The notes: generated from the letters alone by a model not told the origin. A stretch of 64,000 bases of DNA from an uncultured virus (IMG/VR IMGVR_UViG_3300020123_000428) (IMGVR_UViG_3300020123_000428); one strand, 5' to 3'; shown: positions 16,899-62,925, numbered from the stretch's first letter. Made by a program: numbers and translations.

Positions 16899-16909
16899 AG
16901 GGACCCACC

Positions 16910-17173: not shown

Positions 17174-17176
17174 CCC

Positions 17177-17722: not shown

Positions 17723-17729
17723 TCCGTCG

Positions 17730-25677: not shown

Positions 25678-26297
25678 TGTCGGAGTTCCTGCACGTCCTC
25701 ATGGTCGGGTTCGCCATCATCGGCGCCGGGATGGTCCCCGTGGTGATCACCATCGCGGTGGCGCGGTACCGCGCGCGGCGCCGGGAGGATCGGCTCTCGT
25801 TCCTGGGCGTCCCGACCGGGTCACTGACCGGCTGGGACGCGACGCTCGAGTACGGGGACCACGAGGGCGGCATCTTCGATCGCGACACGCTAGATGCGTC
25901 GGTCGCACTGGAGCACAACCGGCGTGATCACGAGGAGTTCATGCGAGAGATCCAGATGGCGGAGGAGCGCCGCCACCGCGCGGAACAGCGCGCGCGCCGT
26001 GAGAAGCGGTGGGCGTGGCTCCCGTGGTCGAAGTACCGTCGCCGCAGGGCCGCCGAGTTGCGCTGGCAGGTCTCTCAGCTGGAAGATGAACTGAAGCTCG
26101 CGCGCTGGCGGGCCGCGCAGTACCGTCGACTTGCGATGGATCATGTCGACTGGATGGGCAGTGGTCTACTGGAGCAGATCAAGAATATCGACGATACCAT
26201 CGCGGTGGTGTTCGAGACTCCACGCGCGCACGCAACGGACCCGAGTCCCGCCGATGACGATATCCCGGCCAACGCGTACGAGGATCTCCTGCAATGA
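25677..26297 (+). CDS. membrane-anchored hypothetical protein
   Basis: N-terminal TM; AGGAG RBS; TGATG coupling. Confidence 0.5.
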   Translation: MSEFLHVLMVGFAIIGAGMVPVVITIAVARYRARRREDRLSFLGVPTGSLTGWDATLEYGDHEGGIFDRDTLDASVALEHNRRDHEEFMREIQMAEERRHRAEQRARREKRWAWLPWSKYRRRRAAELRWQVSQLEDELKLARWRAAQYRRLAMDHVDWMGSGLLEQIKNIDDTIAVVFETPRAHATDPSPADDDIPANAYEDLLQ

Positions 26298-27157
26298 GCG
26301 ACCTCGGGACGCGCCCGGCCGACCCGGGACACGTGAGCGACCTCGGGACGCGCCCGGCCGACCCGGGACACGTGCTGCGCGTCGAGCCGGACCCTGCCGC
26401 GCAGGGGCATACTCCACAGATCAGCCCGGAGATTCCGGGACCCGCCGATGATGCGTGTGGCGTGGCTGGTTCCGTTGAGGTCACGATCGCCAAGCCGCCG
26501 GCGACCCGCCGGCTCGACCTTGCCAGTGGCCAGAACGTCCGCGTGGGATTCGAAGGCGTCGACATCTGGCCGGGCGCGCAGCACGTCGTGAACCTCCAGC
26601 AGTACCCCTGGCCGTTCGAGGACGAGAGCGTGCTCGAGGTCAACTGCAGCCACTACATCGAGCACATCCCGATGGAGATGATCGTCGGTCGCCGCTGCAG
26701 GTGCTGCGGCGGCCACGGCATTGTGCGCTTCGAGGGGTCGGCGGAGCGATGCTCACACTGCCAAGATGGGGTGCAGGCATGGCCTGCCAAGGACGCCCTC
26801 TTCGCATTCTTCGACGAGTGCTACCGCATCCTGGTGCCCGACGGCTGGCTCCACGTAGTGGTGCCGGCGCACCGCTCGGACCGGGCGTTCCAGGACCCGA
26901 CGCACCGGAGGTTCATCACCGCGCAGACCTTCGCGTACATGAACCAGGAGTGGCGGCGGATCAACCGGCTCGACCACTACAACGTCGACTGCAACTTCGT
27001 GGGCAACGCCAACCCGGTGGTGGACCAGACACTGACCCTGCGGCACCCCGACGTCGCCCAGCAGATGATCCAGCGCAACTGGAACACCGTGATCGACTGG
27101 ACCGCCAGCATGCAGAAGAAGCCCCGCATGACGGTCAAGGTGTTCACGTCGCCATGA
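26294..27157 (+). CDS. class I SAM-dependent methyltransferase-like protein with Zn-finger insertion
   Basis: LDLASG, WPFEDESV, SHYIEH, ECYRILVPDG, DPTH; true start may be downstream of 26441. Confidence 0.7.
   Translation: MSDLGTRPADPGHVSDLGTRPADPGHVLRVEPDPAAQGHTPQISPEIPGPADDACGVAGSVEVTIAKPPATRRLDLASGQNVRVGFEGVDIWPGAQHVVNLQQYPWPFEDESVLEVNCSHYIEHIPMEMIVGRRCRCCGGHGIVRFEGSAERCSHCQDGVQAWPAKDALFAFFDECYRILVPDGWLHVVVPAHRSDRAFQDPTHRRFITAQTFAYMNQEWRRINRLDHYNVDCNFVGNANPVVDQTLTLRHPDVAQQMIQRNWNTVIDWTASMQKKPRMTVKVFTSP
26295..26441 (+). repeat. 39-bp tandem duplication and three GCCCGG-N5-CCGGGAC hairpins
   Basis: 26295-26333 equals 26334-26372; hairpins at 26313-26330, 26352-26369, 26424-26441. Confidence 0.7.
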
Positions 27158-31371: not shown

Positions 31372-31697
31372 CCGCCAACTCCCGGACCGATTTCCACATC
31401 ACCCTGTGTCGACCGATGCGCATCATGCTCCAGGACACGAGCGTGGAGTTCCTCGAGTTCGACGCCGTCCGTAACTACGACTGCGACGACATCCAGATGC
31501 GGATGGCCTTCCTTGAGGTGTCCCGCCTCTACCTGAGGGTCTGGCCGACTCCGGCACCGACACCCGCATACAGGCCTGCGCCTACGCCCACGCCAGACAA
31601 GCCAGCACGCCCCGTCAAGATGGCGGTTCGGCTGCTCATTCCGGTCGATAACATCTCTGGCATGGTCGAGCGTGCGCCGGATCTCAAGAAGGCGTGA
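31368..31697 (+). CDS. hypothetical protein
   Basis: AGGAG RBS; ATGA coupling. Confidence 0.45.
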   Translation: MTANSRTDFHITLCRPMRIMLQDTSVEFLEFDAVRNYDCDDIQMRMAFLEVSRLYLRVWPTPAPTPAYRPAPTPTPDKPARPVKMAVRLLIPVDNISGMVERAPDLKKA

Positions 31698-31735
31698 CAT
31701 CGTGGCCGGGTCTCGCCGTTCGTAACCCCAAGGGG

Positions 31736-32557
31736 ATGACTCCAATGCCGAGGACGCAAGCATACAAGGTATTCACGCACGATCTCCGACCCCCGGTACG
31801 TGGTGGGGATCCGGTCTGGGCGGGCGGCGTACCGCACATGCTACCGCGCACGGAGGTGGACACGTCCGACGAGGAATGCGCGGCAGGCTGGAACGCGTGC
31901 GCGATGGCGGAGGACGCGCTGCGCATCGCGGGGCTGTGGCCGGATGGCCGCCCAAGCCGGCTGTTTCGCGTCGAGACCAACGAGCCGGTGTTCGTGCGCG
32001 GCGACAAGGTGCGCGCCGCCACGTGGACCATCGTCGAGGAGTCGGCGGTGGACGACGCGGTCCACGCGCTGTCCCGGAAATGGTTCAGCGCCGAGTTTGC
32101 CGACGAGATGGCGCTCGAGCAACTGACATGGCGAGCCGCGCTCACGCGACCGGCGCGTGACCCGGCGCTCGTCGAGCAACACCTCGCACGAGCGCTCGAA
32201 GCGCGCGGTCTGCCGTGGACGTTGCGGCGCTTCGACACCGCCAGGGACGCCTGGGACGCCTGGGCCGCCTGGGCCGCCAGGGCCGCCAGGGACGCCAGGG
32301 ACGCCTGGGCCGCCAGGGCCGCCAGGGACGCCAGGGACGCCTGGGACGCCTGGGACGCCTGGGCCGCCTGGGCCGCCTGGGACGCCTGGGACGCCTTGAC
32401 CCACTACTTCGCTAGCGCGAAGAAGTGGGTCAGCGGACCGCGTGCCCAGTACACCATCGGTATCCGCGACGCCTATGCCCACGGCCTTGCCATCGCTATC
32501 CCCACAGCCCACAACCAGATCGGCTGGGCTCTCGACAACCGAACGGATCACCGATGA
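31736..32557 (+). CDS. phage protein with A(W/R)(D/A) tripeptide repeats
   Basis: ORF with internal 9-bp tandem array. Confidence 0.6.
   Translation: MTPMPRTQAYKVFTHDLRPPVRGGDPVWAGGVPHMLPRTEVDTSDEECAAGWNACAMAEDALRIAGLWPDGRPSRLFRVETNEPVFVRGDKVRAATWTIVEESAVDDAVHALSRKWFSAEFADEMALEQLTWRAALTRPARDPALVEQHLARALEARGLPWTLRRFDTARDAWDAWAAWAARAARDARDAWAARAARDARDAWDAWDAWAAWAAWDAWDALTHYFASAKKWVSGPRAQYTIGIRDAYAHGLAIAIPTAHNQIGWALDNRTDHR
32240..32395 (+). repeat. 9-bp tandem repeat GCC(A/T)GGG(A/C)C, ~17 units
   Basis: directly visible. Confidence 0.9.
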
Positions 32558-32916: not shown

Positions 32917-33170
32917 GCTGTGGCGCCACCACAGACCCTGAACAGTGAAGGAGGAGATCCAATGCGCACCTAGAGCCCGTCACCGATGAGATTGAGTCGC
33001 TCCCAACTCCCACAGAGCGACGGACAAAGGCAGGCGGCACGGCGCCCTATCCGTGCAAACAAGGGTTGGCTCCGGACCCACCCACGGAGACGCGTCGGGC
33101 GCGTTATGGAGACCCGGAGAAGCAAGCGTACGATAGCCGGAGACGAGACCGAGATGAGACGGAGACATGT
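32917..33170 (+). CRISPR. degenerate hairpin-repeat mini-array
   Basis: GCTGTGG-N5-CCACAGAC 32917-32936; GCTCCG-N10-CGGAGAC 33069-33091; further GGAGAC half-repeats. Confidence 0.4.
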
Positions 33171-33649
33171 CACAGACAAGGGTTCACGAGATGCGCTTTC
33201 CACTGGCAAGAACACAGGCCATGGCACCGAGCTGGGAGGTCCACCGGTACGGTATCCTCCACGTGGTGACCGACCTCCAGGGTCGCCTCGTGGCGGTCGC
33301 GGTGAACCAGGAGACCACGGGGCACTTTCTCGTGTCCCACGTCGCCCAGGACACCCGGCGGTTCTTCGTGGCGTGGTCCGGCCCGCTGCCCCGGCCGGGT
33401 GACTACCTGATGGTGCCCCGGCGGGCGAAGTACGCCTACGAGATCGTGGGTGAGCCCGTGGTGCGCGGTCCGGGCGATGTGGTGGTCGACGTCCGGCAGG
33501 TCCCGCTCCCGCTTCCTGCGCACATCCGGCCGACGATCCACCGCTGGGCGTGGCACCACCGGGTCGGACGGTTCACCGGAAACGCGGTGGGGCGTGCTCG
33601 CGCGCCTGAGCAGCGAGACACGCTGTCAATCTCCTCTGGCGAGACGTGA
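33167..33649 (+). CDS. hypothetical protein
   Basis: GC3-rich core; start uncertain; 3' end overlaps hairpin repeats. Confidence 0.45.
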   Translation: MSQTRVHEMRFPLARTQAMAPSWEVHRYGILHVVTDLQGRLVAVAVNQETTGHFLVSHVAQDTRRFFVAWSGPLPRPGDYLMVPRRAKYAYEIVGEPVVRGPGDVVVDVRQVPLPLPAHIRPTIHRWAWHHRVGRFTGNAVGRARAPEQRDTLSISSGET

Positions 33650-38711: not shown

Positions 38712-39070
38712 GCTCGCCCCCGGGCGAGACACGATGACAAGGCCTTCACCTCCAAAGGAGAGCCGCATGCTGACCCGACATGTCGACCGCCCTCGCCTCC
38801 GCCCCTGCATCGCCTGCATCCTCGTCGCGCTGCTCTGCACGGCCGTCGCGGGTGCGATGTGTGCGTCGATCGACTACGTAGCGCGGATGGCGGTGACCGA
38901 CTATGGTCAGTCGCTGGGGACCATCAACACGTGCACGCTGCCGGTGGTCGACAAGGAATAGCTCCGGATCCGGAGACCGTCGCGCGCCCCGAGCGATCGC
39001 GGACAGCAGGCAACGGAGACAACTGCACGAACGACTCAGGGGCTGGCTCGGTGCCCACGCAAACCGACGA
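38712..39070 (+). CRISPR. dispersed hairpin repeats
   Basis: GCTCGCCCCCGGGCGAGAC 38712-38730; GCTCCGGATCCGGAGAC 38961-38977; half repeat CGGAGAC 39014-39020. Confidence 0.45.
38734..38961 (+). CDS. small membrane protein
   Basis: hydrophobic segment; start may be 38767. Confidence 0.35.
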   Translation: MTRPSPPKESRMLTRHVDRPRLRPCIACILVALLCTAVAGAMCASIDYVARMAVTDYGQSLGTINTCTLPVVDKE

Positions 39071-39097
39071 CCGAATCATGAACCGAAGGAGATCGAG

Positions 39098-41002
39098 ATG
39101 GGTAAGAAGACCGAACGTATCGCCGAGCTCGAGGAGACACTCGCATCCTCCCGGATGCTGATCTTGAGCATCGCGCAGGATCTCAACATCGCCGCGCTGC
39201 TGCCGCATGACTGGCGTCAGCACCCGTTCCAGGTGGCGCGGCTGTTTACTCGGGCGATCGGGATCCGGCCAGCGCCGGGCCCCGTCGCTCCGACGAGCTC
39301 GGCGGACGCCGAGACCGAAGCCGATCCTGTGTCGCGCTCGGCGCCGGCCGAGACGGGTACGACTAGACCGCGCTCGGCGTTCCCCGAGACGCCTGAGCTC
39401 CCGTCGTTCGACGCCATGGTCGACGACCAGGTGGCGAAGATCGAGCGAGCCAAGGCGCCGGTCGGCGCGAACGCCGTGGTCATCTCCGACCCAGGCGCCG
39501 AAGTACCGCTGGAGATGATGCATACGCTGCGCAACGTCATCGATGCGGTCGCCCAGGAGCTCGGCATCGAGCACGAAGGGCAGGCCCCGTTCGACGTGCT
39601 GTACGCCTGCTACAACGAGATCCGGCGGATAAAGAACCCCGACGGTACGATCGATGCCGACACCGGAGATGAGGCGCTGTCCAAGGGGGATTCCCTCGCC
39701 GAGGCGGTGGCGCACGGCCAGCGCACCGAGAACACGCTGCGGGAGCAGCTCGAGGCGTCGCGCACCCTGGTGAACCGGATCGCCGGCGCGCTGCAGATCA
39801 GCACGTGGTCACCGGATGGCGCAGAACTGCTTGAGCGCGTCCAGGCGTGGTCGACGGCACGCACGATCCTCCGGCGGTGGCACCGCTCGATCACGATCGA
39901 GGTCTCCGCCGATAGCAACGTGCGGGTCCCGGCGAGGCACGTACGGATCAGCCTGGCCGAGTTGATCGATCGGATGGATGGGCCCGGCTCGGCGGACCGA
40001 GACTTCAGGACGATGAAGACCGAGACCACCACAGCAACGTCCGCGACGAGCTCGGCGCCGGCGGAGACGGCAGCCCAAACAGCGACGACGTCCACGGACA
40101 AGGCGTGCCAGGTCTGCGCGCGTTTGGAGGCGCACCCGGACCACCGGGATCGCGGGATGACCAACTATCACCAGTTCGTGTCGAGCTCGGCGCCGGCCGA
40201 GACTGTTGCAGCGCCCGAGACAACCACAGCGGCAGCATCGCCCAGCGTCCTGACGGCGTGCCGGGTGTGCGGCATGCCCGAGGGGTTCTTCGATCACCAT
40301 GGGCTGGGGCCGATCGCCCACCCGTTCGTCCCCGGCGGCCAGTTCGCACCGGTGACCACGACGCGCTCGGCGCCGGCCGAGACGGTTGACACTCCGTCGG
40401 CGGCTCCAGGGATGCCGGTCGGCCTGCTCCTCGATGAGGAGAAGATCCAGCTTCTGCAGTGGCTGTCCGACCACTCCACGATGATCGGGGGGGCCAGCGG
40501 GCCGCGCGTCGTGCTTGACGACGTGATCCGGGCAGCCAAGATCGCGCTCGCCAGCGCCAAGCACCCGGACGACCCCGAGGAGCGGATGAAGCGGATCCGC
40601 GAGCGCATGAGCCGCCTGAAGCACGGACCGAAGGGCACCGGGCAACCTGGCTCGTGCGAGCCCGACTGCCTGAAGTGCGAGCTCGACCGCGAACTGAAAG
40701 CGCTGCAACTGGGACGCGCGGCGCCGATCCAGTGCATTCGCTTCACCGTGAGCCTCATCCGCGAGGCCGAACTCCCCGGCCAGTGGGTGTCCATCTTCCA
40801 TGAGCTCAACCTCAAGTCGGGCGGCGTGACGCCGCAACGCGCCCTCCTGGCAGGGGCTGCCGCCGTGCGGATGCTGGTGGACCACCGTATGACCCAGGAC
40901 AAGATGTTGGCCCACGAGGTGTTCGCGGCGCTGAAGGCCCAGGGCGGGTTCCGGGGCTTGTCGGACCGGATGATCCTGGCCGACGACAAGGAGCAGGGCT
41001 GA
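39098..41002 (+). CDS. large mosaic protein with SAPAET-type repeats
   Basis: AAGGAG RBS; TGATG-coupled to the Cas12m-like gene; CxxC...H motifs. Confidence 0.65.
   Translation: MGKKTERIAELEETLASSRMLILSIAQDLNIAALLPHDWRQHPFQVARLFTRAIGIRPAPGPVAPTSSADAETEADPVSRSAPAETGTTRPRSAFPETPELPSFDAMVDDQVAKIERAKAPVGANAVVISDPGAEVPLEMMHTLRNVIDAVAQELGIEHEGQAPFDVLYACYNEIRRIKNPDGTIDADTGDEALSKGDSLAEAVAHGQRTENTLREQLEASRTLVNRIAGALQISTWSPDGAELLERVQAWSTARTILRRWHRSITIEVSADSNVRVPARHVRISLAELIDRMDGPGSADRDFRTMKTETTTATSATSSAPAETAAQTATTSTDKACQVCARLEAHPDHRDRGMTNYHQFVSSSAPAETVAAPETTTAAASPSVLTACRVCGMPEGFFDHHGLGPIAHPFVPGGQFAPVTTTRSAPAETVDTPSAAPGMPVGLLLDEEKIQLLQWLSDHSTMIGGASGPRVVLDDVIRAAKIALASAKHPDDPEERMKRIRERMSRLKHGPKGTGQPGSCEPDCLKCELDRELKALQLGRAAPIQCIRFTVSLIREAELPGQWVSIFHELNLKSGGVTPQRALLAGAAAVRMLVDHRMTQDKMLAHEVFAALKAQGGFRGLSDRMILADDKEQG
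39297..39390 (+). CRISPR. intragenic three-repeat mini-array
   Basis: 19-nt GCTCGG-N6-CCGAGAC at 39297, 39336, 39372; spacers 20 and 17 nt. Confidence 0.55.
39987..40383 (+). CRISPR. intragenic hairpin repeats
   Basis: repeats at 39987-40003, 40050-40068, 40185-40203, 40365-40383; half repeats at 40020 and 40215. Confidence 0.5.
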
Positions 41003-42927
41003 TGTCGGTCCGCGTCTACGAGTACGGTCTGCGCGCGCCCACCTTCAACGCCGATCTGGTGGACGAGCAGATCTTCAAGGCCCACCGGTACCGCAACCTC
41101 CTGACCGAGATCGAGCAAGCGCGGCGCGTGGCCGTGCGGCAGATCATGAGCGCGCACCCCGACATGGTCCCGCTCGATGAGGAACTCCGGGTCCTGAACG
41201 AGCAGATCGAGGCCGCGCGGCAGGTCATCATGAGCGCTCGCAAGGCGACCCGGTCCCGCTCGGAGACCGCCGAGCAGCGCGCCCAGGTCCGCGAGCTCAC
41301 CGCCAAGGCCAAGGGGTTGCGGGAGCAGATCAAGGGCATCCGCAAGGCGGTGGCGGAGGACACCGCGATCCGCGAGGCGCTCGATCGCGCGGACGAGGAG
41401 TCGGAGGAGAAGATCCGCCAAGCCCGCGCGGTGTGTGGCGTGTACTGGGGGACCTACCTCCTGCAGGAGGCGGCGGCGCGGCAGGCTCGCCAGGAGCGCA
41501 TGCCGCCCAAGTTCCAGCGCTACCGCGGCGAGGGCCGGGTGTCGGTGCAGCTCCAGAAGGGCCTCGAGCTGGCGGACCTCTGGGGGACCGACACCCAGAT
41601 CCGCATCGAGCCGGTGGCCGAGGCCGCCCATGATCCGCTCACCCGCCGCGGCGATCGCCGGCGGCTCGCCCGCACCAACGTCATGATCCGGGTCGGCTCG
41701 GACAAGGGCAAGCCGATCTGGGCCACGTGGCCGATGATCTACCATCGCCCGCTGCCCAAGGGCGCGGTCCTGAAGGTCGCCACGGTCAGCCGACGTCGGC
41801 GCAACTGCTCGACCTGGGACTGGCGCCTCCACGTCACCGTGGACACCAGCGCGTGCGAGGCGCGCCCGGTGCCGGCAGGCGGCGTGGTCGCCCTGAACCT
41901 GGGCTTCTGCATGCGTCCCGGTGGCGGCGTCCGTGCCGGCTACATGGTCGGCAGTGATGGCGAGGAGCGGGAGATCTTGGTCAACAAGTCCGACGCCTAC
42001 CGCGGTCGGGACCTCTCCGTGGAGGAGCAAGCCCGGCTGGGCGAGTGGATCCCCAACGGCTTCGCCAAGGCGGAGAGCATCCAGTCGATCCGCGACAAGA
42101 ACCTCGACCGGTTGCGCGCCGCCCTCCTGGCGTGGCGCGGCCGCGCCGAGCTCGACATCGGGGCGATCACCGAGATGATCCAGGAGTTCCGGCGGGGCCC
42201 CCGCGACAACCCCCGCACCTGGAACTGGGGGGACCCGCCCCCGCCGGTGATCGCGCCCGAGATCCCGGAGTGGCTCATGACGACGACGCAGGCCATGCAC
42301 GCCTGGCGATCCCCCGACCGCTTCCGGTCCCTGTACCGCGCCTGGGGCCGCCAGCGCTTCGAGGGCGACGGGGTGGGCTACGAGTGCCTGGGTGCGTGGG
42401 TCGAGCGGGACGAGCACCTGGAGCACTACGAGGCCGGTCTGCGGCGCTCCGCACTCCTGGACCGCCGCGAGTCCTACCGCATCCTGGCCGCCCAGATGGC
42501 CCGCACCTACGCCACCCTGGTCATCGACGACACCGATCTGCGCGCCTTCCAGCGCAGCCCCTCCCCCGAGAGTGGGGATGTCGAGTTCAACGCCGTGAAG
42601 CGGAACCAGCGCCTCGCCGCCGGCAGCGAGCTACGAGGCGTCCTCATGAACGCCTTCGGGCCCGGCCGGACGGTCAAGCTCTCGGCCAAGGATGTCACCC
42701 GCCGCTGCTACCACTGCGGCACCATCAACCAGTGGGAGCGATCCACCGCCGACCGCCTCCACACCTGCAGCGAGTGCAAGGTCCAGTGGGACCAGGACGC
42801 CAACGCCTGCCGGAACCTCCTGCGAGAGCACGAGCACACCAAGGACGCACCCGCAGCGCCGGCCCCGGACAAGAAGCCCAGCCGCTCTGAGCGCCTCCTG
42901 GAGGCCAAGCGCCGGCGGGCCGCGTGA
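41002..42927 (+). CDS. cas12m: Cas12m-like (type V-M) / TnpB-superfamily RNA-guided DNA-binding protein with non-canonical RuvC
   Basis: 641 aa; long N-terminal coiled coil; YWGTY, RYRGEGRVSVQLQ, YHRPLP, VALNLGF (RuvC-I, N for D), WRSPDRF..L..AW, LVIDDTDL (RuvC-II, D for E), CYHC/CSEC Zn finger, WDQDANA (RuvC-III); blocks match my recollection of MmCas12m. Confidence 0.8.
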   Translation: MSVRVYEYGLRAPTFNADLVDEQIFKAHRYRNLLTEIEQARRVAVRQIMSAHPDMVPLDEELRVLNEQIEAARQVIMSARKATRSRSETAEQRAQVRELTAKAKGLREQIKGIRKAVAEDTAIREALDRADEESEEKIRQARAVCGVYWGTYLLQEAAARQARQERMPPKFQRYRGEGRVSVQLQKGLELADLWGTDTQIRIEPVAEAAHDPLTRRGDRRRLARTNVMIRVGSDKGKPIWATWPMIYHRPLPKGAVLKVATVSRRRRNCSTWDWRLHVTVDTSACEARPVPAGGVVALNLGFCMRPGGGVRAGYMVGSDGEEREILVNKSDAYRGRDLSVEEQARLGEWIPNGFAKAESIQSIRDKNLDRLRAALLAWRGRAELDIGAITEMIQEFRRGPRDNPRTWNWGDPPPPVIAPEIPEWLMTTTQAMHAWRSPDRFRSLYRAWGRQRFEGDGVGYECLGAWVERDEHLEHYEAGLRRSALLDRRESYRILAAQMARTYATLVIDDTDLRAFQRSPSPESGDVEFNAVKRNQRLAAGSELRGVLMNAFGPGRTVKLSAKDVTRRCYHCGTINQWERSTADRLHTCSECKVQWDQDANACRNLLREHEHTKDAPAAPAPDKKPSRSERLLEAKRRRAA

Positions 42928-43319
42928 CGCCGCGCGAGCGATGGGATGCGGCGGTGGCGCTCCAGCACCAGACGGTAGCGCAGATCGCCAGACTTCCGCT
43001 GGACGAGGCCGGCGACAGTTCGTGCACGGATCTGGTCAACCGCGCCACCTACGAGCTGATGGAGGCGTACCGGGAGTTGAGGTACGAATACGAGTCGCAC
43101 GCTTGGCGTGGGTCAGAACCACATCCGTTGTACGACTTGCTCATGCCAGAGTGGTACGCGGCGTACAATCTGCACCGTGAGGCGATGTTCCAGCGGGAAC
43201 GCGTGGGCACGCTCTACCGAGCCACTCTGGCTATCGATGAGCAGTGCCTCGCAATGGCGCGCGTGTATTCGGCGATCCCGTCGCACCTGAAGGTGGACTC
43301 GACCGGCGTCGAGGCATGA
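42924..43319 (+). CDS. hypothetical protein
   Basis: GTGA-coupled to the cas12m-like gene. Confidence 0.5.
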   Translation: MTPRERWDAAVALQHQTVAQIARLPLDEAGDSSCTDLVNRATYELMEAYRELRYEYESHAWRGSEPHPLYDLLMPEWYAAYNLHREAMFQRERVGTLYRATLAIDEQCLAMARVYSAIPSHLKVDSTGVEA

Positions 43320-43366
43320 TGAACTCGGACAACATTCCGAGGCCGGCTCGATGTGCTCTGGGAATG

Positions 43367-43506
43367 GCTCGTCGCCGACGAGACCAGCTGTCGTCCCTGG
43401 TTCCGCTCGGGGATGCCCGAGACGAGTGGGAAGTTGTGGTCAGGATCCGCTCGGGGATCGCCGAGGACAGGTCACAGCCGAGACGCGTTCATCAACTGCC
43501 CGAGAC
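43367..43506 (+). CRISPR. degenerate mini-array downstream of cas12m-like gene
   Basis: hairpins 43367-43384, 43405-43423, 43449-43468; half repeats CCGAGAC at 43478 and 43500; spacers 20 and 25 nt. Confidence 0.6.
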
Positions 43507-43531
43507 CCGTGCTCTCAGTCCCAAAGAGGTT

Positions 43532-43903
43532 ATGATGAATCCCCGCGATCAAGAGTTGTTCGACGGCCGCCCGAAGATCACCAAGCCGTGCCCTCATTGT
43601 TCCGGGCATGGCCGGGTCACAGTCGGCTATGCGCTCATCCACTTCGAGCGTGCGTCGATGCCTGAGCCACTGGACAGGATCCCGCCCGACGCGATCTGCG
43701 CCCTGGTCGTCGGCTCCTCCGGCATCTACGAGTGCTGCAAGGAGGCGGTCGAGATCGCGGCTCGAGCGCAACGTCCCGTTGCCTTCGAGTTCTGCAGTCA
43801 GATCGTCATCGCCAGAGCAGGGGATGATCCGGTCCGGCTCGCACGCGAGTGGTGGATGATCGAGTACAAGGAGACACCAGAGGCCAGCGCCGCGCGACGA
43901 TGA
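43532..43903 (+). CDS. hypothetical protein (CPHCSGHG)
   Basis: GAGG RBS; flanked by mini-arrays. Confidence 0.5.
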   Translation: MMNPRDQELFDGRPKITKPCPHCSGHGRVTVGYALIHFERASMPEPLDRIPPDAICALVVGSSGIYECCKEAVEIAARAQRPVAFEFCSQIVIARAGDDPVRLAREWWMIEYKETPEASAARR

Positions 43904-43911
43904 CACAAGGT

Positions 43912-44030
43912 GGTCCAGCTCGGTGGGTTCGACCGAGACGCGCTCTCGTCAACCATCGGGTTCCGCTCGGGGAATCCCGAGACGCCAGAGCAAGGGATGT
44001 CCGGTCCAGCCCAGTGGCAGAACCTGGGAC
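43912..44030 (+). CRISPR. three-repeat mini-array
   Basis: GGTYCM + hairpin + AC at 43912-43939, 43959-43983, 44003-44030; two 19-nt spacers. Confidence 0.65.
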
Positions 44031-44109
44031 AGTTGTGCTGCCTTGCCAGTGGAAAGTTCACTTGACACCCGACGTCTGCTTCGCACAGGCTGTCGGGTAA
44101 GGAGATCCC

Positions 44110-44514
44110 ATGCTCACCGCCGAACAACTCCATGACCTGCACCGCCGCGCTGATGCGGTGACCCTGCCCAGTGCCGGGCCGTTCTGTGCTCGGACCGCGG
44201 CTCGACTGCTCTCGGGGACCCACTTCCTGACCAGCGCGTGGGGCCCGCCAGCCATGCAGGCCGCGTGTGCGCGTCTCGCTCAGGGAGAGATCACCCAGAC
44301 CGACGAGTTGCCCATCAGCATCCTGTCGGCGGCGGTCCGCGGGCTCCTCCTGGTGTTCTCGGTGGAGCACGTCCGCGCCGCGCTGGCGTTCTGGGCCAGC
44401 GAGAACGATCCCGCCGTCTGGCGCGCGGTCACCGAGGATGGATCGGCATGGCTCGACGTGACCCGTCGAGACGGTGGTGGCGATGCGCAGCGGCTAGCTC
44501 GGCAGAACGGCTGA
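44110..44514 (+). CDS. hypothetical protein
   Basis: AAGGAG RBS; 3' end overlaps hairpin repeats. Confidence 0.5.
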   Translation: MLTAEQLHDLHRRADAVTLPSAGPFCARTAARLLSGTHFLTSAWGPPAMQAACARLAQGEITQTDELPISILSAAVRGLLLVFSVEHVRAALAFWASENDPAVWRAVTEDGSAWLDVTRRDGGGDAQRLARQNG

Positions 44515-44517
44515 GAC
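44451..44517 (+). CRISPR. two-repeat mini-array
   Basis: GCTCGACG-N5-CGTCGAGAC 44451-44472; 24-nt spacer; GCTCGGC-N6-GCTGAGAC 44497-44517. Confidence 0.5.
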
Positions 44518-44571
44518 GCGTCTGAGAACGACTCGCGATCTCTTGCGAGGCATGTCCGCAGCTTAGCTGCA

Positions 44572-44934
44572 TCAGATGTGGTACCGAATGTAGATCTCGA
44601 GCGAGGGAGGTCCCCCGTCCATGGACGGCGTGGCGATCTCGATGAGGAAGTTGGCGTTCGTGGTGCCCTGCTTGTTGATGGCGATGGGCCCCAGCGGGCT
44701 ACCGAGCTGGGAGGCGAAGCACGCCTCGACGGCCACGACATCCTGCAGTCCCCGGATGTGGCCCTGATAGTTGTAGGGCTGCGGCGCGAAGGTCTCCGGC
44801 AGCACCAGATCGGGCGTGGCCTGGCTGCCGAACAGGCCGATCGATGCCGAGGAGTTCGCCGCGATCGCGGTCCCCGTGATGCGGAGCATGTTGTCGGCGA
44901 TCTGCGTGACGGTCGGGGTACCCACGAACGGCAT
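44572..44934 (-). CDS. beta-rich protein, paralogue 1 (possibly structural)
   Basis: clear similarity to 45091-45450 (QI.D...RITG...PD.VLP.TF.PQ.Y.Y...LEIY.RYH). Confidence 0.65.
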   Translation of the reverse strand: MPFVGTPTVTQIADNMLRITGTAIAANSSASIGLFGSQATPDLVLPETFAPQPYNYQGHIRGLQDVVAVEACFASQLGSPLGPIAINKQGTTNANFLIEIATPSMDGGPPSLEIYIRYHI

Positions 44935-45090
44935 GGAGGTCTCTCCCTGAATTGGAGGGTGACCCTTGCCGGCGGCGGTTGTGCGCACGCGCGCCGCGTT
45001 AGCGGCCTCGAGCACCGGGGAAGCGATGTCGGTGTGGTGCCTCCCGGGCGGTCATGCCCGACGTCTCACTGGCCATTTAGGCCAATGCGA

Positions 45091-45450
45091 CTACTCGTGG
45101 TAGCGGACGTAGATCTCGAGCGCCGGCGTCGCGATGGTGAAGCCGTTGCTCAGGGTCGCCCGGAAGTCGGCATCGGTGGTGCCGGTCTTGGCGACGCCGA
45201 CCTGCTCGAAGTCCGCCACGACCGCAGCGGGGTTGGCGGTCACCTGGACGGCGTCGGCCAGGTGGACCGTGTTCGCCCCGTAGGTGTAGTTCTGGGGGTT
45301 GAACGTCGCCGGGAGCACGACATCGGGCGTCGCGCCGCTGTGGCCGGTGAGCGCGATCGTGCCGCTGGCACCCGCCGCCAGCGAGAGTCCGGTGATGCGC
45401 ACGAGACGGTCGGAGATCTGCAGGATGGTCGCGGTGCCGGTGAATGCCAT
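45091..45450 (-). CDS. beta-rich protein, paralogue 2
   Basis: similar to 44572-44934. Confidence 0.65.
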   Translation of the reverse strand: MAFTGTATILQISDRLVRITGLSLAAGASGTIALTGHSGATPDVVLPATFNPQNYTYGANTVHLADAVQVTANPAAVVADFEQVGVAKTGTTDADFRATLSNGFTIATPALEIYVRYHE

Positions 45451-45499
45451 GGGGGAGACGGTATCACCGCTCACCTTGCAGGTTCAATACCTACCTGAT

Positions 45500-45594
45500 G
45501 TCTCGGGTGGTGGTTAGTTCCGTTGGCGTCTCGGAGCACACGACGCCGTCGTCTCGGTTCCGTCCCATCGGCCGTAGTCTCGGCGTCCCCGAGC
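45500..45594 (-). CRISPR. one full hairpin followed by three CCGAGAC half-repeats
   Basis: GTCTCGG on + strand at 45500, 45528, 45551, 45577; spacers 16-21 nt. Confidence 0.55.
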
Positions 45595-45766
45595 GGGTCA
45601 CGTGCTACTGTAGCACGGTCGACGAGCACCCTGGGGCTATGCACAAGAAACTCACCTGTCTCTGCAACCGGCAATCGCACGTCGGCCGAGTGACCCAGGT
45701 GGATGTCGCCTGCGCCTGAAACGGATGCTGGGGGGCTCGTCGACCGTCTGACCAGGAGCGGAAACC

Positions 45767-45940
45767 ATGAAGCGCAAGCTGATCCTCAAGTCCCAGACCC
45801 TGCGCGTGCTCTCGTCGCGTGATCTCGCCACCGCGGTCGCTGGCGAGGCCGCCATCAGCGCGGCATGGTGCCAGACCCAGCGCAATTGTCCGCCGCCGGC
45901 CAGCGATGGCTTCAGCTGCGGCGGCAACACGCACGACTGA
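45767..45940 (+). CDS. RiPP/lanthipeptide-precursor-like peptide
   Basis: AGGAG RBS; MKRKLILKSQTLRVLSSRDLATAVAG leader; Cys/Ser/Thr core; 57 aa, below ORF-track cutoff. Confidence 0.55.
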   Translation: MKRKLILKSQTLRVLSSRDLATAVAGEAAISAAWCQTQRNCPPPASDGFSCGGNTHD

Positions 45941-45960
45941 TCCAGGATCACGTCGATGTC

Positions 45961-46011
45961 GTCTCCGGGTTCGGCCTCGGAGCGCGGTCTGTCGTCTCGG
46001 ACGCGCCGAGC
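45961..46011 (-). CRISPR. two hairpin repeats
   Basis: 45961-45983 and 45994-46011. Confidence 0.4.
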
Positions 46012-46183
46012 TCGCCCGCTGAACCTCTATGGGCCTCGGCGCCGCCGAGTTGGTCCACGCAGACATAGCACATGCGGACGTTCGCCACCTCGCGCCAGCG
46101 ACGGTGTGGCTTGGCTCGATACCCGGCGTCCCGGCGCCGCCGGCCGCAGCGCGGGCATCGCCGGGTCTTGTGGCCACGTCGTT

Positions 46184-46735
46184 TCAGGGTTGCTCTCGCT
46201 TCGCGTGCGCGAGGTCGGCCTCGGAGGGTCCGCCTCCCAGGTCCCCGGTCAGGTCGGACAGGTCCTGATCGCCCAGGGCGGTCTCCGGCATCGGCGCGCC
46301 GTCCATCAGCGTGGCGACCTTGAGCGGCGATGGCGGCGGCGCCGGCGGGGCCGCTGGCGGGGCGCCCAGCCGGACCAGCACCCCCTTGGCCGCCGTGCGA
46401 TCTTTGGGCACCGGCACGGTGCGGGGCTCGGGCGCCCGCACGGTGCGGTCCTTGTACACCATCCGCGGTGGCGGCGCCGGGACCGGGCGCCGAGCCGGCG
46501 CCGGCGCAGGTGTCTGGACGTTGTTGCGGGCGACCGCCTGGACCACGGCGCCGACATCGACCGAGGCCGGCACCGCAGTCAGGTGGCCGTTGACCAGCAG
46601 ATCGTGATCCGGGGGGATCTTGGTCACCACGCCCCGCACGGGGACCGTGTACGGCGTGGCGTTGGCGAGCTCGAACGATGTCCCCGGGCTCTCGGCCGCG
46701 GGCCTCTCTTCGGTCGGGGGCTGACTCATGATCAC
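46184..46735 (-). CDS. Pro-rich hypothetical protein
   Basis: GAGG RBS. Confidence 0.5.
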   Translation of the reverse strand: MIMSQPPTEERPAAESPGTSFELANATPYTVPVRGVVTKIPPDHDLLVNGHLTAVPASVDVGAVVQAVARNNVQTPAPAPARRPVPAPPPRMVYKDRTVRAPEPRTVPVPKDRTAAKGVLVRLGAPPAAPPAPPPSPLKVATLMDGAPMPETALGDQDLSDLTGDLGGGPSEADLAHAKREQP

Positions 46736-46751
46736 CTCTGGCCGGAGGGTA

Positions 46752-47147
46752 TCACGTGTGGACGCGCAGGCGGTCGCCGACGATGCGAGACGTGCTGGGC
46801 GGCAACTCGTCCAGGTCCCCCGCCACCCAGCGGTCCACCAGCGCCCGGAACTCCGAGGCCCTCTTGAGCTCCACGGGCGGCAGGTGCGCCGCGTCCACCC
46901 GCGCCACCGCGTCCCCGGGCTGGCGCTCGAAGAACGCGATCCGCACCAGCGGGTCCCGGCGCCCGGTCGCGCACGGCACGCTGATCCAGGTCTTCGCCGC
47001 GCTGAAGATGTCGAACTCGACCACCATCACCACATGGTCCGACACCTGCCACTCCCGGGCGCTGTCGTCCCGGGCGGACAAGAGCGCCGAGAACCGCTCG
47101 CACACCTGTTGGTATCGCATCTGCCCGGAACGTAGCATTGTGGTCAT
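46752..47147 (-). CDS. hypothetical protein
   Basis: ORF in minus arm. Confidence 0.45.
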   Translation of the reverse strand: MTTMLRSGQMRYQQVCERFSALLSARDDSAREWQVSDHVVMVVEFDIFSAAKTWISVPCATGRRDPLVRIAFFERQPGDAVARVDAAHLPPVELKRASEFRALVDRWVAGDLDELPPSTSRIVGDRLRVHT

Positions 47148-47237
47148 GCGCCTCGGTATCTGAAATGAACCGAGTCTCACCGTTCGATACCCTTGTCACC
47201 AGACGACGACGGATGCTGCCATCGCCTGCAACCGCTC

Positions 47238-47406
47238 GTCTCGGTTCACCCGAGCCGGTTCTCAACCAATACCGGCATCGATAGCGTCTCGGTTCAGCCG
47301 AGCCGATCTCGACAAGAGTCCCGGCGATCCGGCGATCCGGGCCAGTCTCAACCCAGCGCGCTTGTCTCGGACGCAATCCCGAGCCCATCTCGGAAAACGC
47401 CGAGCG
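47238..47406 (-). CRISPR. four-to-five-repeat mini-array
   Basis: hairpins 47238-47256, 47286-47304, 47318-47343, 47364-47385 and degenerate 47387-47406; the four main units are each preceded by GAGA. Confidence 0.6.
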
Positions 47407-47408
47407 CG

Positions 47409-47780
47409 TCACATCGCTTCGGAGATGCCCCGGCCCTTGCCGAAGATCACCTTCCAGATCGCGCCGGCCAGCGGAATGGAGAGCGTGGCCGCGATCTGGA
47501 GCCACTTCTGGAGCTCGGCAGTCTTGAGCGTCTGCACTCCCGCCTGGAGCTGCGCCATCACGTTGGCTTGCCACTGGGCGGTGGCCGGATCGGTCAGGGT
47601 CGGCTGCGAGAGCGTGCTGGCTGACGCCGGATCGTCGCCCAGCGAGCCCAGCGCCGGCCCCATCTGGCGGTGCACCCGCGCCCGCGACAACGGGGTCGAG
47701 ACGCCGCCGATGGCCGTGTACCAGCGGGGGCCGTGAGCGGTGTCGCCGGAGAGCGCGCGATGCTTGCGGTGGTAGGACAT
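47409..47780 (-). CDS. membrane-anchored virion-type protein
   Basis: basic N-terminus, ALGSLGD, C-terminal TM. Confidence 0.6.
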   Translation of the reverse strand: MSYHRKHRALSGDTAHGPRWYTAIGGVSTPLSRARVHRQMGPALGSLGDDPASASTLSQPTLTDPATAQWQANVMAQLQAGVQTLKTAELQKWLQIAATLSIPLAGAIWKVIFGKGRGISEAM

Positions 47781-47792
47781 GGGGCCCCTTGT

Positions 47793-48407
47793 TCAGTTGG
47801 TGGCGAACACGCCCAGGTTGGCGGCGCCGATGGCGTCGTCGATCGCCAGGTCCGACAGATCGCCCTGCGCTGGCGGCGATGCCTGCGGACCTGCGTTGGT
47901 CACCTTGCCGCCGCTGGACACGCCGTAGCGCCCGGCGTCGAAGGCGTCGTTGTACGTGAACTCGTTCGGGTCCTCGTCCGTCGGTTGCAGCATGGCCGCC
48001 TGGCTCTGGGCGGCGAGCTGGTTCTGGGCGGTCGTGGTCGCGGCCGCGATCTCCGGCGTCGCATCCGCGATCACCCACCCCAGGGTCGGTAGGTAGAGTT
48101 GGATGATGGACTGGATCGCCGCGATCGCGGAGCCGACCACCACGGGCGTGTGGTACTTCTCGATCCACTTCACTCGGTGGGCCAGGAACCACGCCGCCAG
48201 GAACGAGCCGACCGAGGTCACCGCGCCCGCGTGCTTCGCCCAGCCGGGCGAGAGCTTGGCGACCTGGGTGGCGGCGATCCGGGTGGCGAACCGCGTGGCC
48301 GCGAACCCCGCGAACCCCGGCACGATGTACTCGACCAGGTCCGTGAAGAGGGGCGGGTTGCGCCGCATGGGCTTCACGTACCGACGATGCATTGTGGAAC
48401 GCGCCAT
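47793..48407 (-). CDS. membrane virion-type protein
   Basis: MRRNP then hydrophobic helices and acidic tail; architecture like C-half of 10448-11887. Confidence 0.6.
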   Translation of the reverse strand: MARSTMHRRYVKPMRRNPPLFTDLVEYIVPGFAGFAATRFATRIAATQVAKLSPGWAKHAGAVTSVGSFLAAWFLAHRVKWIEKYHTPVVVGSAIAAIQSIIQLYLPTLGWVIADATPEIAAATTTAQNQLAAQSQAAMLQPTDEDPNEFTYNDAFDAGRYGVSSGGKVTNAGPQASPPAQGDLSDLAIDDAIGAANLGVFATN

Positions 48408-48507
48408 GTCCTGTGTTGCTCCTGCGCGGCCCCGGGTACGCGCCGTAGGCCACAGGGTAGCCCGGGATCGGCCGGTGGTTCAAGCCCCTTCCTCGGCAGC
48501 GCGTGGT

Positions 48508-48662
48508 GTCCCGGCCTCCCCGGGCAGGTCCCCTCGTAGTTCATGAGCCGTCTCGGTCGCCCGAGCGTCGCTAGTTCCCCGTCCCCGCTTGGGGGGCTCA
48601 TCTTGAGCGCCGCCAGCACACGTCTCGCAGGCAGGGCACACCCGTCTCGCCGCTTCGCGAGC
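48508..48662 (-). CRISPR. mini-array with covarying hairpins
   Basis: hairpins 48508-48525, 48550-48566, 48581-48597, 48644-48662; half repeat 48622-48627; spacers 14-24 nt. Confidence 0.6.
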
Positions 48663-48671
48663 AGATACCTA

Positions 48672-49109
48672 CTAACTCCCGGTCGGCGCGGTGACCCCCC
48701 CGTGGACGGCGCAGCCCAGCACCGTCTCCAGGAACCGCCGCAGCACCGGCGTCGCGTCGTGGGCGTGGTGGACGATCTCGCGTAGCGAGGTCCGAGCCAG
48801 CGCCGTGAGCGTCATCAGCAGCTTCAGGTATGACCCGCCCAGCTTGGGCTCGATGTGGTGCCACTGGTTCGAGATCATGATCTCCATCACCTGGTCCGGC
48901 TCGACACCGTAGGTCGCCAGGATCCCGGCCACATGCCCCAGGATCAGGAACACGGTCGAGCACTCACCGGTGTGCAGCGAGAACTCGCGGAGTCCCAGAC
49001 CCACCAGCTCGCGCTGCAGGAGGGACGGGCCGGCCGAGGTCGCCGCCTGCATCAGGCGATCGACGAAGTGGTTCGCCTGCTGCTGGGTCTCGTCGTGCGG
49101 GGTCGTCAT
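48672..49109 (-). CDS. hypothetical protein
   Basis: GGAGG RBS. Confidence 0.55.
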   Translation of the reverse strand: MTTPHDETQQQANHFVDRLMQAATSAGPSLLQRELVGLGLREFSLHTGECSTVFLILGHVAGILATYGVEPDQVMEIMISNQWHHIEPKLGGSYLKLLMTLTALARTSLREIVHHAHDATPVLRRFLETVLGCAVHGGVTAPTGS

Positions 49110-62039: not shown

Positions 62040-62925
62040 GGTGGTATCTTACGAGGGATTCATGGAGATCTCCGAGAAGAACCTGTCGGGGTTCCGCGAC
62101 TGGCTCCGGGGGCGCGGGCGGACCGAGGGGACGGCCGAGACCTACTGCATGAACCTCCGCACCTGTGGCGCCGACCCCAAGGGGCTGACCCACCGCCTGA
62201 TCGCCGGCGACCTCGCCCCGACCACGCTGCGCTGTAACCTCGCGTCCCTCCGAGCCTGGGCGCTGTACGCCAAGGACGGCACCCTGTCCCAGACCCTGGC
62301 CGACCTGCGCCTCCCGCCGCCGCGCCGCATGAAGTCCCGTGATCCGCTGGATCGCGAGGACTGGAAGCGGATAGTGCGCCACCTCCAGACCTGCGACATG
62401 ACCAACGAGGCCATGCGTCAGATCCTGCTCATCATGGCGCTCCGGGGCCTCAGGTCCGGCGACGTTCTGCGGCTCCGCCGCGCCGAGGTCGTCCGCGCCG
62501 TTGCCAGCGGCAAGCTCTCCTACGAGGGCAAAGGCAGGAAGCGCATCGAGCTCTCGGCGGCGCCGATCCGGGGGCCGCTCGAGGCGCTCGCGCAGATGCG
62601 CGGCTGGGACCGCGTGCGTGACCTCCTCGGAACCGCTCGCTCCGGCGAGACGCTTGCATCGTCGGCGCTGCGCAAGAAGGTGTGGCGTGCCGCGATCCGC
62701 ACCGGCGCCGCGGCCGGCATCGACGAGATGAACCCGCACCGCTACCGGCACACGTTCGCGACGCAGTACCTGGCCCAGCTCGCTGGCGACCCCAATAGCA
62801 TCGTGAAGCTGCAGCGGTACATGCACTGGGAGTCGATGGGGACCGCGGCGCGGTACGTCGACCACGTGTCCCGCGAGCAACTCGATAAGGTGGGCGACGA
62901 CATGGTGTCCGACCTCCTGACCTGA
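62038..62925 (+). CDS. tyrosine recombinase/integrase
   Basis: GLRSGD (R), GKG (K), HRYRHTFA (HxxR), MHW, ARY (Y); start 62038 or 62062. Confidence 0.85.
   Translation: MVVSYEGFMEISEKNLSGFRDWLRGRGRTEGTAETYCMNLRTCGADPKGLTHRLIAGDLAPTTLRCNLASLRAWALYAKDGTLSQTLADLRLPPPRRMKSRDPLDREDWKRIVRHLQTCDMTNEAMRQILLIMALRGLRSGDVLRLRRAEVVRAVASGKLSYEGKGRKRIELSAAPIRGPLEALAQMRGWDRVRDLLGTARSGETLASSALRKKVWRAAIRTGAAAGIDEMNPHRYRHTFATQYLAQLAGDPNSIVKLQRYMHWESMGTAARYVDHVSREQLDKVGDDMVSDLLT

Follow-up and report, generated by a model that had tools for sequence, protein, structure and literature searches.

Introduction

Cas12m, the effector of type V-M CRISPR systems (formerly V-U1; PMC11013384), is of interest as a compact DNA binder for gene silencing and base editing, and has been described as a weapon of plasmids. 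Eight orthologues have been characterised, four with a D-E-D, two with an H-D-D and two with an N-D-D triad in the RuvC domain; all eight bound double-stranded DNA depending on a protospacer adjacent motif and none cleaved it (Bigelyte et al. 2024, PMC11013384), and the triads of further clades are listed in PMC10442227. Cleavage of the precursor CRISPR RNA by Cas12m is independent of RuvC (PMC11013384; preprint 10.64898/2026.03.26.714355). In the CRISPR RNA (crRNA) of Cas12m2, C(-22..-17) and G(-8..-3) pair into a helix that ends in the closing pair G(-23).A(-2), runs on into A(-2)C(-1) and stacks on a pseudoknot (PMC10442227); the crRNA of PmCas12m is reported to comprise a repeat part of about 33 nt and a guide of about 17 nt (preprint 10.64898/2026.03.26.714355). 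Type V-M has already been described on plasmids "and some prophages" (PMC11656645), and so has one phage Cas12m with an array (preprint 10.64898/2026.09.14.751636). Here we analyse a cas12m gene at positions 41002-42927 of a 64,000-nt stretch of DNA from an uncultured virus (IMG/VR IMGVR_UViG_3300020123_000428), hereafter the window, which has no regular CRISPR array and carries, scattered through the operons around cas12m, hairpins identical to the 3' handle of the CRISPR repeats of sister phages. We regard these elements as a probable arrayless type V-M system.

With type V-M as known from MmCas12m2 (8HHL/8HIO), GoCas12m (8PM4), MsCas12m and PmCas12m, the locus shares full-length homology of the effector, a lack of adaptation genes, an N-D-D triad such as that of orthologues in PMC11013384, the residues that contact the scaffold, and an RNA layout of pseudoknot, hairpin and 3' AC. 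It differs in having no array of 36-nt repeats, three scaffolds of about 25 nt and about 19 minimal hairpins of 17-24 nt being found in operons instead, six of them in coding sequence, and in being borne by a phage, whereas the V-M family has been described as plasmid-enriched (PMC11656645). MvCas12m of the myxophage MV-1 is likewise a phage Cas12m that comes without cas1, cas2 and cas4; its triad, however, is reported as D-E-D, and an array with eight spacers is reported next to it (preprint 10.64898/2026.09.14.751636), whereas our locus has N-D-D and no array.

Lone, repeat-derived hairpins of phages are known as Racr (PMC10651486) and Cracr (preprint 10.1101/2024.10.29.618823) RNAs, and the handle of about 19 nt resembles that of the type V-A Cracr; those RNAs mimic host repeats and act on the Cas protein of the host, whereas here the effector is encoded by the phage and co-varies with the hairpin. 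Degenerate repeat-spacer-repeat mini-arrays beside a cas gene, as we find here, are also described as CreR or crRNA-like RNAs, and CreR-type RNAs autorepress cas genes (preprints 10.1101/2023.03.03.530964 and 10.1101/2023.03.10.532045). In sister strains of one related phage (L001 type) such a cluster stands in the cas12m leader. Unlike the case of CreR, a partial match between a guide and the cas promoter was sought in the window, where the promoter is not known, and was not found when compared with random controls. TldR proteins are nuclease-dead TnpB-like repressors, and our protein has in common with TnpB and TldR the core of RuvC and zinc finger and the idea of a dead RNA-guided binder acting as a repressor; it differs from them by the REC lobes and the scaffold of Cas12m, and by a handle located 5' of the guide and not in a long 3' omega-RNA. 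What is new is a Cas12m without an array and with handles dispersed in phage operons; the N-D-D triad, type V-M in phages and prophages, and viral solitary repeats were already known. A search of the full-text literature, with preprint (bioRxiv) supplements outside its reach, returned no paper on dispersed Cas12m handles in phage operons or on an arrayless phage Cas12m.

The Cas12m protein and its gene

41002-42927, plus strand: cas12m gene with ATG start, encoding protein P0001 (641 aa) with RuvC triad and zinc finger

The open reading frame (ORF) that the initial annotation, made from the bare sequence, had placed here is present together with all the motifs quoted for it: VALNLG starts at residue 296 of P0001, VIDDTD at 507 and WDQD at 596, and the zinc-finger cysteines C569, C572, C589 and C592 are invariant across 47 homologues. 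The GC content at third codon positions is 0.94 in cas12m (0.85-1.00 across all 120-nt bins), above that of its neighbours (0.80-0.97 on the upstream side, about 0.72-0.82 for the ORF that follows directly), and a 710-aa ORF antisense to the gene is explained as a by-product of high GC content.

The sequence comparisons solidly identify P0001 as a full-length type V-M effector. A profile of the 47 homologues matched four distinct Cas12m sequences in the PDB near full length (E 6.6e-130 to 1.3e-48, spanning profile positions 2-565 of 602); the next matches, to TnpB and Cas12f, reached 1.6e-7 at best and covered the C-terminus only, with TnpB chains at about 1e-4. With P0001 alone as query, phmmer gave the Cas12m 23vw at E 3.8e-58, Cas12m2 at 2e-20, UnCas12m4a at 1e-19 and 8pm4 at 4e-10, and TnpB chains at only about 0.5. 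The PADLOC model Cas12u1 matched at 8.8e-83. General libraries detect solely the C-terminal core of RuvC and zinc finger: the Pfam family PF07282 covers residues 558-606 with 25.3 bits, 1 bit short of its cut-off of 26.3, the TnpB models of NCBIfam align to residues 482-619 only and score 26.2, 19.6 and 19.4 bits against cut-offs of 350, 100 and 425, and a PHROG "transposase" family matches at E 1.5e-7. The protein had been called Cas12m-like, as opposed to an ordinary TnpB, and several of its blocks had been likened to blocks of MmCas12m (ALHLGW, WKSPQRF, LVDDTS and YDQD). Both the classification and the comparison were right: all four blocks occur in the Cas12m2 chains 8hhl and 8hio, where they align to VVALNLGF, WRSPDRF, LVIDDTDL and WDQD of P0001.

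The RuvC site, which had been described as non-canonical, does carry the triad N299-D509-D599 in the alignment to Cas12m2 (H-D-D in these columns) and 23vw (D-E-D); this triad is not unusual, however, as it is the already described variant of two orthologues in PMC11013384. Among the 47 close homologues N299 is conserved in at least 90%, and D597 and D599 are invariant. N-D-D was found in 23 of 115 related loci. Among these loci, those with N at position I can have any of D, E, G, H or N at position II, which fits a RuvC site no longer used for DNA cleavage. By analogy with the N-D-D orthologues, P0001 most likely binds double-stranded DNA under the guidance of RNA and does not cut it. The residues reported to contact the scaffold in Cas12m2, R237, R241, R245, H269 and R270 (PMC10442227), align with R, R, R, H248 and R249 of P0001; H248 is conserved in at least 90% of the 47 homologues and R249 in all of them.

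The family comprises 3355 cluster representatives at E values up to 1e-3 and 1655 at 1e-30. A search of viral contigs with the single protein gave no relatives, which were recovered with the homologue alignment; an exact 42-nt stretch of cas12m was absent from the viral collection searched, and a nucleotide search of the phage collection gave no matches. The collection of GenBank phage records held one homologue, from Virus Rctr197k, 34% identical and annotated as "similar to transposase".

The gene had been taken to be encoded by a virus, and the window is indeed syntenic with three complete phage genomes (G001-G003) of 79-86 kb that have direct terminal repeats and one cas12m apiece. About 15 ORFs around cas12m have syntenic counterparts, with 24-64% identity, in four IMG/VR contigs (L001-L004), three of which are these complete genomes, and the identity of cas12m to its relatives (40-48%) lies within that range. 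This similar divergence, together with a single syntenic copy per genome, argues that the gene was inherited with the phage and is not a mobile passenger. From these comparisons, cas12m is a conserved, vertically inherited gene of a soil phage lineage of about 80 kb. As the initial annotation had noted, cas1 and cas2 are lacking: PADLOC models for Cas1, Cas2, Cas4 and transposases matched none of the 78 other ORFs of the window, and Pfam revealed no adaptation genes among 6 + 52 ORFs. None of the scanned ORFs matched a transposase family, the sole recombinase being an integrase-family gene at 61978-62925. Identical pieces of the region 39000-48700 were found at low depth in four soil DNA runs; the contigs from these runs are short identical pieces that offer no usable variation at the hairpins.

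Scaffold units and their relation to Cas12m repeats

43399-43468, plus strand: repeat-spacer-repeat mini-array, composed of unit A (43399-43423), a 19-nt spacer (43424-43442) and unit B (43443-43468)
43959-43983, plus strand: scaffold unit C, with pseudoknot UUCC:GGAA and hairpin GCTCGG..CCGAGAC

The claim that the locus has no canonical array holds in so far as a regular array of repeats of about 36 nt was not found in the 64-kb window, either by TRF or by a repeat search; repeat-derived elements are nonetheless present, namely three full scaffold units and about 19 minimal handles. The three units, A, B and C, are located 0.5-1 kb downstream of cas12m and keep a pseudoknot helix, UUCC:GGAA or GAUCC:GGAUC, plus the hairpin; unit B ends in GGAC. 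Their layout matches that of the Cas12m2 crRNA, with the G-23.A-2 closure, the 6-bp stem and the 3' AC.

In many related loci regular arrays adjoin cas12m, and in all the arrays inspected (ten loci) the repeat of about 36 nt ends in G-C-stem-loop-stem-G-AC, with a stem sequence specific to the lineage. An example is L054, an N-D-D locus 46% identical to ours with a 29-unit array directly after cas12m, in which most units read GTAGCGAGAGCTGCTCGGCGCTCCACGAGCCGAGAC, that is, the hairpin of the window. The stem tracks the Cas12m lineage of the phage itself, being CTCGG, CTCGA, CTCGT, CTCAA or CGCAG according to the branch. In the array repeats a second helix joins a 5' segment to the first half of the loop; it covaries, with versions GAGC:GCTC, AGCGT:ACGCT, TGGC:GCCA, AAGGC:GCCTT and GCCAC:GTGGC. 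An alignment of 12 scaffolds (three of the window and nine of related loci) gave 97.2% paired cells for the two helices together; shuffles gave 75%, and sliding the partners 31-50%. Compensatory changes are seen in 7 of 9 pairs and none of 500 shuffles reached the score, the structure having been drawn from the same 12 sequences and the hairpin arm, though not the pseudoknot helix, having served to detect the units. Units A, B and C are the safest candidates for guide genes.

Minimal units, about 19 in the window and nearly all of the 64-65 in the complete genome G001, have a median inner length of 6 nt, compared with 11-13 nt in arrays.

Dispersed hairpins in the window

33069-33091, plus strand: outlying handle hairpin, stem CTCCG/CGGAG
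33596-33619, plus strand: outlying handle hairpin, stem CTCGC/GCGAG
38712-38730, plus strand: handle hairpin with compensated stem CTCGC/GCGAG; the small ORF 38767-38961 begins 36 nt further on
39297-39315, 39336-39354 and 39372-39390, plus strand: three handle hairpins in the ORF upstream of cas12m, 20 and 17 nt apart
39987-40003, 40185-40203 and 40365-40383, plus strand: three more handle hairpins in the same ORF
43918-43939, plus strand: intergenic handle hairpin, 15 nt past the stop at 43903
44451-44472, plus strand: handle hairpin with compensated stem CTCGA/TCGAG, at the 3' end of ORF 44110-44514
45577-45594, 45961-45983 and 45994-46011, minus strand: three handle hairpins
47238-47255, 47286-47303 and 47364-47384, minus strand: three handle hairpins between ORFs 47409-47780 and 46752-47180
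48550-48566 and 48644-48662 (the latter with stem CTCGC/GCGAG), minus strand: two handle hairpins between ORFs 48672-49109 and 47793-48407
62635-62651, plus strand: isolated handle-like hairpin in the integrase-family ORF, which may be a chance member

The minimal hairpins, of the form G-CTCGG-loop-CCGAG-AC, lie mainly at 33-49 kb, in two convergent operons around cas12m. The exact pattern CTCGG-loop-CCGAGAC occurs 15 times in the window, where 0.63 occurrences are expected; all 15 fall within 39.3-48.6 kb. Those to the left of 44.5 kb are on the plus strand and those to the right on the minus strand, and the genes likewise switch strand at about this point. With the general pattern G-CTC-NN..NN-GAGAC and a stem of at least 5 bp we counted 22 units against 0.9 in 30 Markov simulations, with inner stems CTCGG (15), CTCGC (4), CTCCG (2) and CTCGA (1). 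A count independent of pairing pointed in the same direction, since 25 of 41 sites with both anchors had at least two inner Watson-Crick pairs, as opposed to 1 of 11-15 sites for each of four control 3' anchors. When loops of up to 14 nt were allowed the number of units rose to 23; by gene calls that are crude, every one of the 23 points the same way as the called ORF closest to it, and 13 are intergenic. The loops are 2 to 11 nt long, with compensated stems, and a G precedes the stem in all 42 exact-pattern units of the window and L001, even though the pattern did not require it.

Two groups on the minus strand have further motifs beside them: CCGAGAC half-sites follow the hairpins of 45577-46011, at 45500-45557, and each of the hairpins at 47238-47384 is preceded by GAGA-N3-4-G, like the 36-nt repeat of L054. 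The half-site CCGAGAC alone is not enriched in the window (32 against 23, a number reached by 7 of 100 shuffles). No T runs follow the hairpins, and within 32.5-49.5 kb both terminator-like sites (5 against 4.9) and promoter-like sites (1 against 1.1) are at chance level. Scans of the window for Rfam families and for tRNAs gave no matches.

Change among related phages

In a FastTree phylogeny of 87 distinct proteins the window falls in a clade of 26 rows (local support 100), all of which have N at RuvC-I. Under a crude classification into arrayed and dispersed loci, many of which are short, arrays are found in 9 of the 26 rows (L058, L100, L052, L086, L051, L054, L055, L053 and L002), and eight of these nine lie outside the 12-row subclade (support 96) that contains the window. 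Of the 12 rows of that subclade, nine were classed as dispersed or mixed and only L002 as arrayed, with extra lone units besides; the other two have too few units to be classed.

Three L001-type strains, 93-98% identical, differ in the number of units, in the loops and in the inter-unit sequences of 13-40 nt, and their variable hairpin cluster leads into cas12m. Between strains, a raised substitution rate in the 17 nt after the handles (7.5-8.1% against 2.2-3.6%) was noted and rejected as a signal, for the 17 nt before the handles change at a matching rate (5.2-5.6%); the raised rate may only reflect the intergenic setting. In the complete genome G001 the units are distributed across most of its 86 kb, far from cas12m, and 55 of 64 are placed between ORFs.

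Dispersal of handles was seen in other phage lineages as well, among them that of L013, whose Cas12m has the triad N-E-D and is found on contigs of 112-178 kb: positions 1593-20187 of L013 hold 16 full-length repeat units (..CTGGGAGGTTTAGTGATCCCAGAC), irregularly spaced over 20 kb, 15 of them on one strand.

Guides and candidate targets

The 63-64 guides that can be read from G001 have no match in their own complete genome beyond random controls, and in the window guide prefixes of 12-14 nt are not duplicated more often than random ones. Self-targeting was rejected: in the best case, the guide after 43983 against 43811-43835 (23 of 25 positions, with a gap), 18% of random 24-mers did as well. 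The spacers of related arrays have no credible hit in the window, the single match being one of 18 nt with one mismatch (E 0.023).

The 19-nt spacer of the mini-array (43424-43442) has exact matches on eight IMG/VR contigs (L130-L137), which form three sequence groups about 62% identical to each other; two other 20-nt guides of the window have no exact match in IMG/VR. The matched sequence belongs to a gene for ribonucleotide reductase (phrog_367, E 2.6e-26) of unrelated phages, lies on its antisense strand and is preceded by AGG, a trinucleotide also found 5' of the protospacer of L002 and of one of the two protospacers of L064 described below. We consider this match a lead only, within the range of chance, because an independent exact 19-mer is expected 0.2-0.6 times (a rough estimate, the size of the collection not being given), the matching contigs have 48-53% GC compared with 68% in the window, neither the window nor G001-G003 nor any of the other loci has such a gene, and the observation on AGG was made post hoc.

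Two related phages carry spacers that match their own DNA. One spacer of the L002 array (about 16500-17950, minus strand) is identical over 35 of 35 nt to a site in its own cas12m gene (10917-10951), and two spacers of L064 (array 11791-12590) perfectly match back-to-back sites at 9103-9163, about 870 bp upstream of cas12m. Such spacers would be tolerable for a binder that does not cut, and may be regulatory.

Proposed mechanism and alternative explanations

Taken as a whole chain, an arrayless type V-M system in which Cas12m is guided by repeat-derived units and silences matching DNA is, in our judgement, rather probable, and its first links are much more secure than the whole. The regular array would have been lost in this branch of the phage lineage, and the repeat-derived units would be transcribed within ordinary phage operons. 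Cas12m would then bind the units in phage transcripts and trim them to a handle plus a guide of about 17 nt, and the loaded protein would occupy DNA that matches the guide, whether in the host or in a competitor element, and block its transcription or replication. Binding of the units by P0001 is inferred, most of all for the minimal ones, as are the production of guides from the units and the nature of the targets. The programmable repressor against host or competitors proposed in the initial annotation would agree with the known behaviour of the family.

Several observations weigh against this mechanism. The 22-23 guides of the window match other parts of it, and the three complete related genomes G001-G003, no better than random 24-mers or 12-14-mers do, and no RNA run carries sequence of the region 39000-48700. 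The folding energies of six hairpin regions are no better than those of shuffles (z from +1.4 to -1.5), and the compensatory changes within the window are partly circular, as the units were found by requiring pairing. The helix between flank and loop, present in 24 of 28 array repeats of L054 and 23 of 27 of L052, is no better than shuffled in the dispersed units of the window and of G001, in a comparison whose flank omits the base adjoining the G; the three scaffolds of the window escape it for that reason, but a separate check does show them. As the solved Cas12m complexes grip the pseudoknot, the minimal hairpins may be bound weakly or not at all. The six hairpins in the upstream ORF share one reading frame, encode peptide repeats of SSAPAET type and have similar flanks, and so may have spread as a peptide repeat. 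A seventh, decayed copy at 40050 keeps the peptide and has its stem broken by a synonymous change, whereas the unit at 39987 keeps the stem and has a changed peptide; because these two copies differ in opposite ways, selection on RNA and selection on peptide are inseparable for the six units.

If the minimal handles are bound, they would be the smallest natural Cas12m scaffold, and guides would be made, or messages controlled, from within ordinary operons; if they are not, the effector would have only three guide units and would still be a useful natural minimal system. A whole soil phage lineage keeps cas12m in synteny, and one can trace in it how regular arrays gave way to scattered minimal handles of about 19 nt. 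A bolder version, which we hold tentatively and judge somewhat unlikely, is that the array has dissolved into the genome, so that handles punctuate the operons and Cas12m is a core factor, for the processing or regulation of messages or for a broad and fast-changing pool of guides, and not part of an accessory defence island. Ordinary phage transcription would, in that event, yield dozens of RNAs bound to Cas12m.

The alternative that survives best, although we think it unlikely, is that the hairpins are not guide genes but cis-acting RNA sites at which Cas12m cuts or caps polycistronic phage mRNAs, tuning the stability or translation of neighbouring genes and of its own; the phage would then have turned a CRISPR-derived protein to operon punctuation or autoregulation. 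The position of the units agrees with it (13 of 23 between ORFs and all co-oriented in the window, 55 of 64 between ORFs in G001), and so do their spread over most of the G001 genome at a distance from cas12m, the hairpin cluster that forms the cas12m leader in L001-type strains, the retention of cas12m in all four related phage genomes examined, as would be expected of a core function, the empty searches for DNA targets, and the RuvC-independent cleavage of precursor crRNA by Cas12m (PMC11013384; preprint 10.64898/2026.03.26.714355). However, the distances of the units to start and stop codons are irregular (10-173 nt), sister phages have kept real arrays with 36-nt spacers, and the inter-unit sequences are replaced wholesale among near-identical strains, which resembles the turnover of spacers and not the behaviour of conserved untranslated regions.

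That the minimal hairpins are a generic phage family, such as REP-like (repetitive extragenic palindromic) elements, RNA stabilisers or strand-specific DNA sites for another protein, and that only the three scaffold units belong to Cas12m, seems to us quite improbable. Mycobacteriophage "stoperators" are oriented intergenic repressor sites, and sites of this kind show the same strand bias; besides, most units are without a pseudoknot and the peptide repeat may account for six of them. Yet the stem, the closing G, the first C:G pair and the 3' AC are exactly those of the CRISPR repeat of the clade, loops of 2-11 nt with compensated stems do not fit a double-stranded operator, and the missing T runs and the chance level of terminator-like sites also speak against a generic element.

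Very improbable, in turn, is that the hairpins are decoys or hijacking RNAs of Racr or Cracr type directed against a type V-M system of the host, with the phage cas12m standing apart from them: solitary phage repeat units that mimic host repeats are known inhibitors (PMC10651486; PMC11656645), type V-A Cracr RNAs with a 19-nt handle are known (preprint 10.1101/2024.10.29.618823), and hairpins free of a pseudoknot could form dead complexes, but the hairpin sequence follows the Cas12m lineage of the phage itself and is identical to the repeat of arrays beside the cas12m of sister phages. Finally, the chance that cas12m is a TnpB-type transposon passenger with an omega-RNA is practically negligible and this explanation is refuted as far as sequence analysis can go, given that, in spite of weak C-terminal matches to TnpB models and the "similar to transposase" label of the Virus Rctr197k homologue, the match to Cas12m is full-length, all scores for TnpB, including those for an IS200/IS605 or IS607 identity, are far under their cut-offs, and the gene is present as one syntenic copy per phage genome, with divergence like that of its neighbours and no transposase alongside, as the initial annotation had expected.

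Neighbouring genes and other features of the window

39098-41002, plus strand: upstream ORF of 634 aa without a known family, overlapping the start of cas12m with its stop (TGATG)
42924-43319, plus strand: downstream ORF of 131 aa without a family, overlapping the stop of cas12m with its GTG start (GTGA)

The translational coupling proposed on both sides of cas12m can be read directly in the sequence, as the overlaps TGATG (41000-41004) and GTGA (42924-42927). The upstream ORF keeps a coding-type GC content at third positions throughout, and its residues 103-273 are conserved upstream of cas12m in the phages L003 and L004; the downstream ORF had no tblastn match in loci L001-L028. Searches of Pfam, PHROGs, NCBIfam, PADLOC and the ESM Atlas gave no family for the 634-aa protein or for the small neighbours. 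The few ORFs of the window with a family are typical of phages: DUF5131, Dam methylase, HNH, M23 peptidase, NADAR and the integrase-family gene.

Two tandem paralogous small genes on the minus strand (44572-45015 and 45091-45474; 147 and 127 aa), for which no family was found, are present in two copies also in L001 and L002, and in the window as in L001 clusters of handles are located upstream of the copy of 45091 type. Amid minus-strand genes, a small plus-strand ORF (45767-45940) encodes MKRKLILKSQTLRVLSSRDLATAVAG followed by a Cys-rich tail; it had no NCBIfam or PADLOC match, and we take it to resemble the precursor of a peptide with leader and core.

Repeats of other kinds were also detected. 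Within minus-strand ORFs, a 129-nt unit is repeated in tandem about 11 times at 20921-22387 (minus strand), which looks like a repeat protein, possibly a fibre or adhesin; 17.6 copies of the 9-nt unit CGCCTGGGA at 32239-32396 (plus strand), within ORF 31694-32557, would encode a three-residue repeat. ORF 26294-27157, whose match to a methyltransferase PHROG is weak, opens with a perfect 39-nt tandem duplication (26295-26372, plus strand). A 26-nt stretch at about 63290-63314 (minus strand) has two matches each in L001, L045, L047 and L073, with 1-2 mismatches, and appears to be a conserved repeated element. Lastly, a phage ORF of 591 aa (17730-19505, plus strand) contains a response-regulator receiver domain (PF00072, 31.5 bits).

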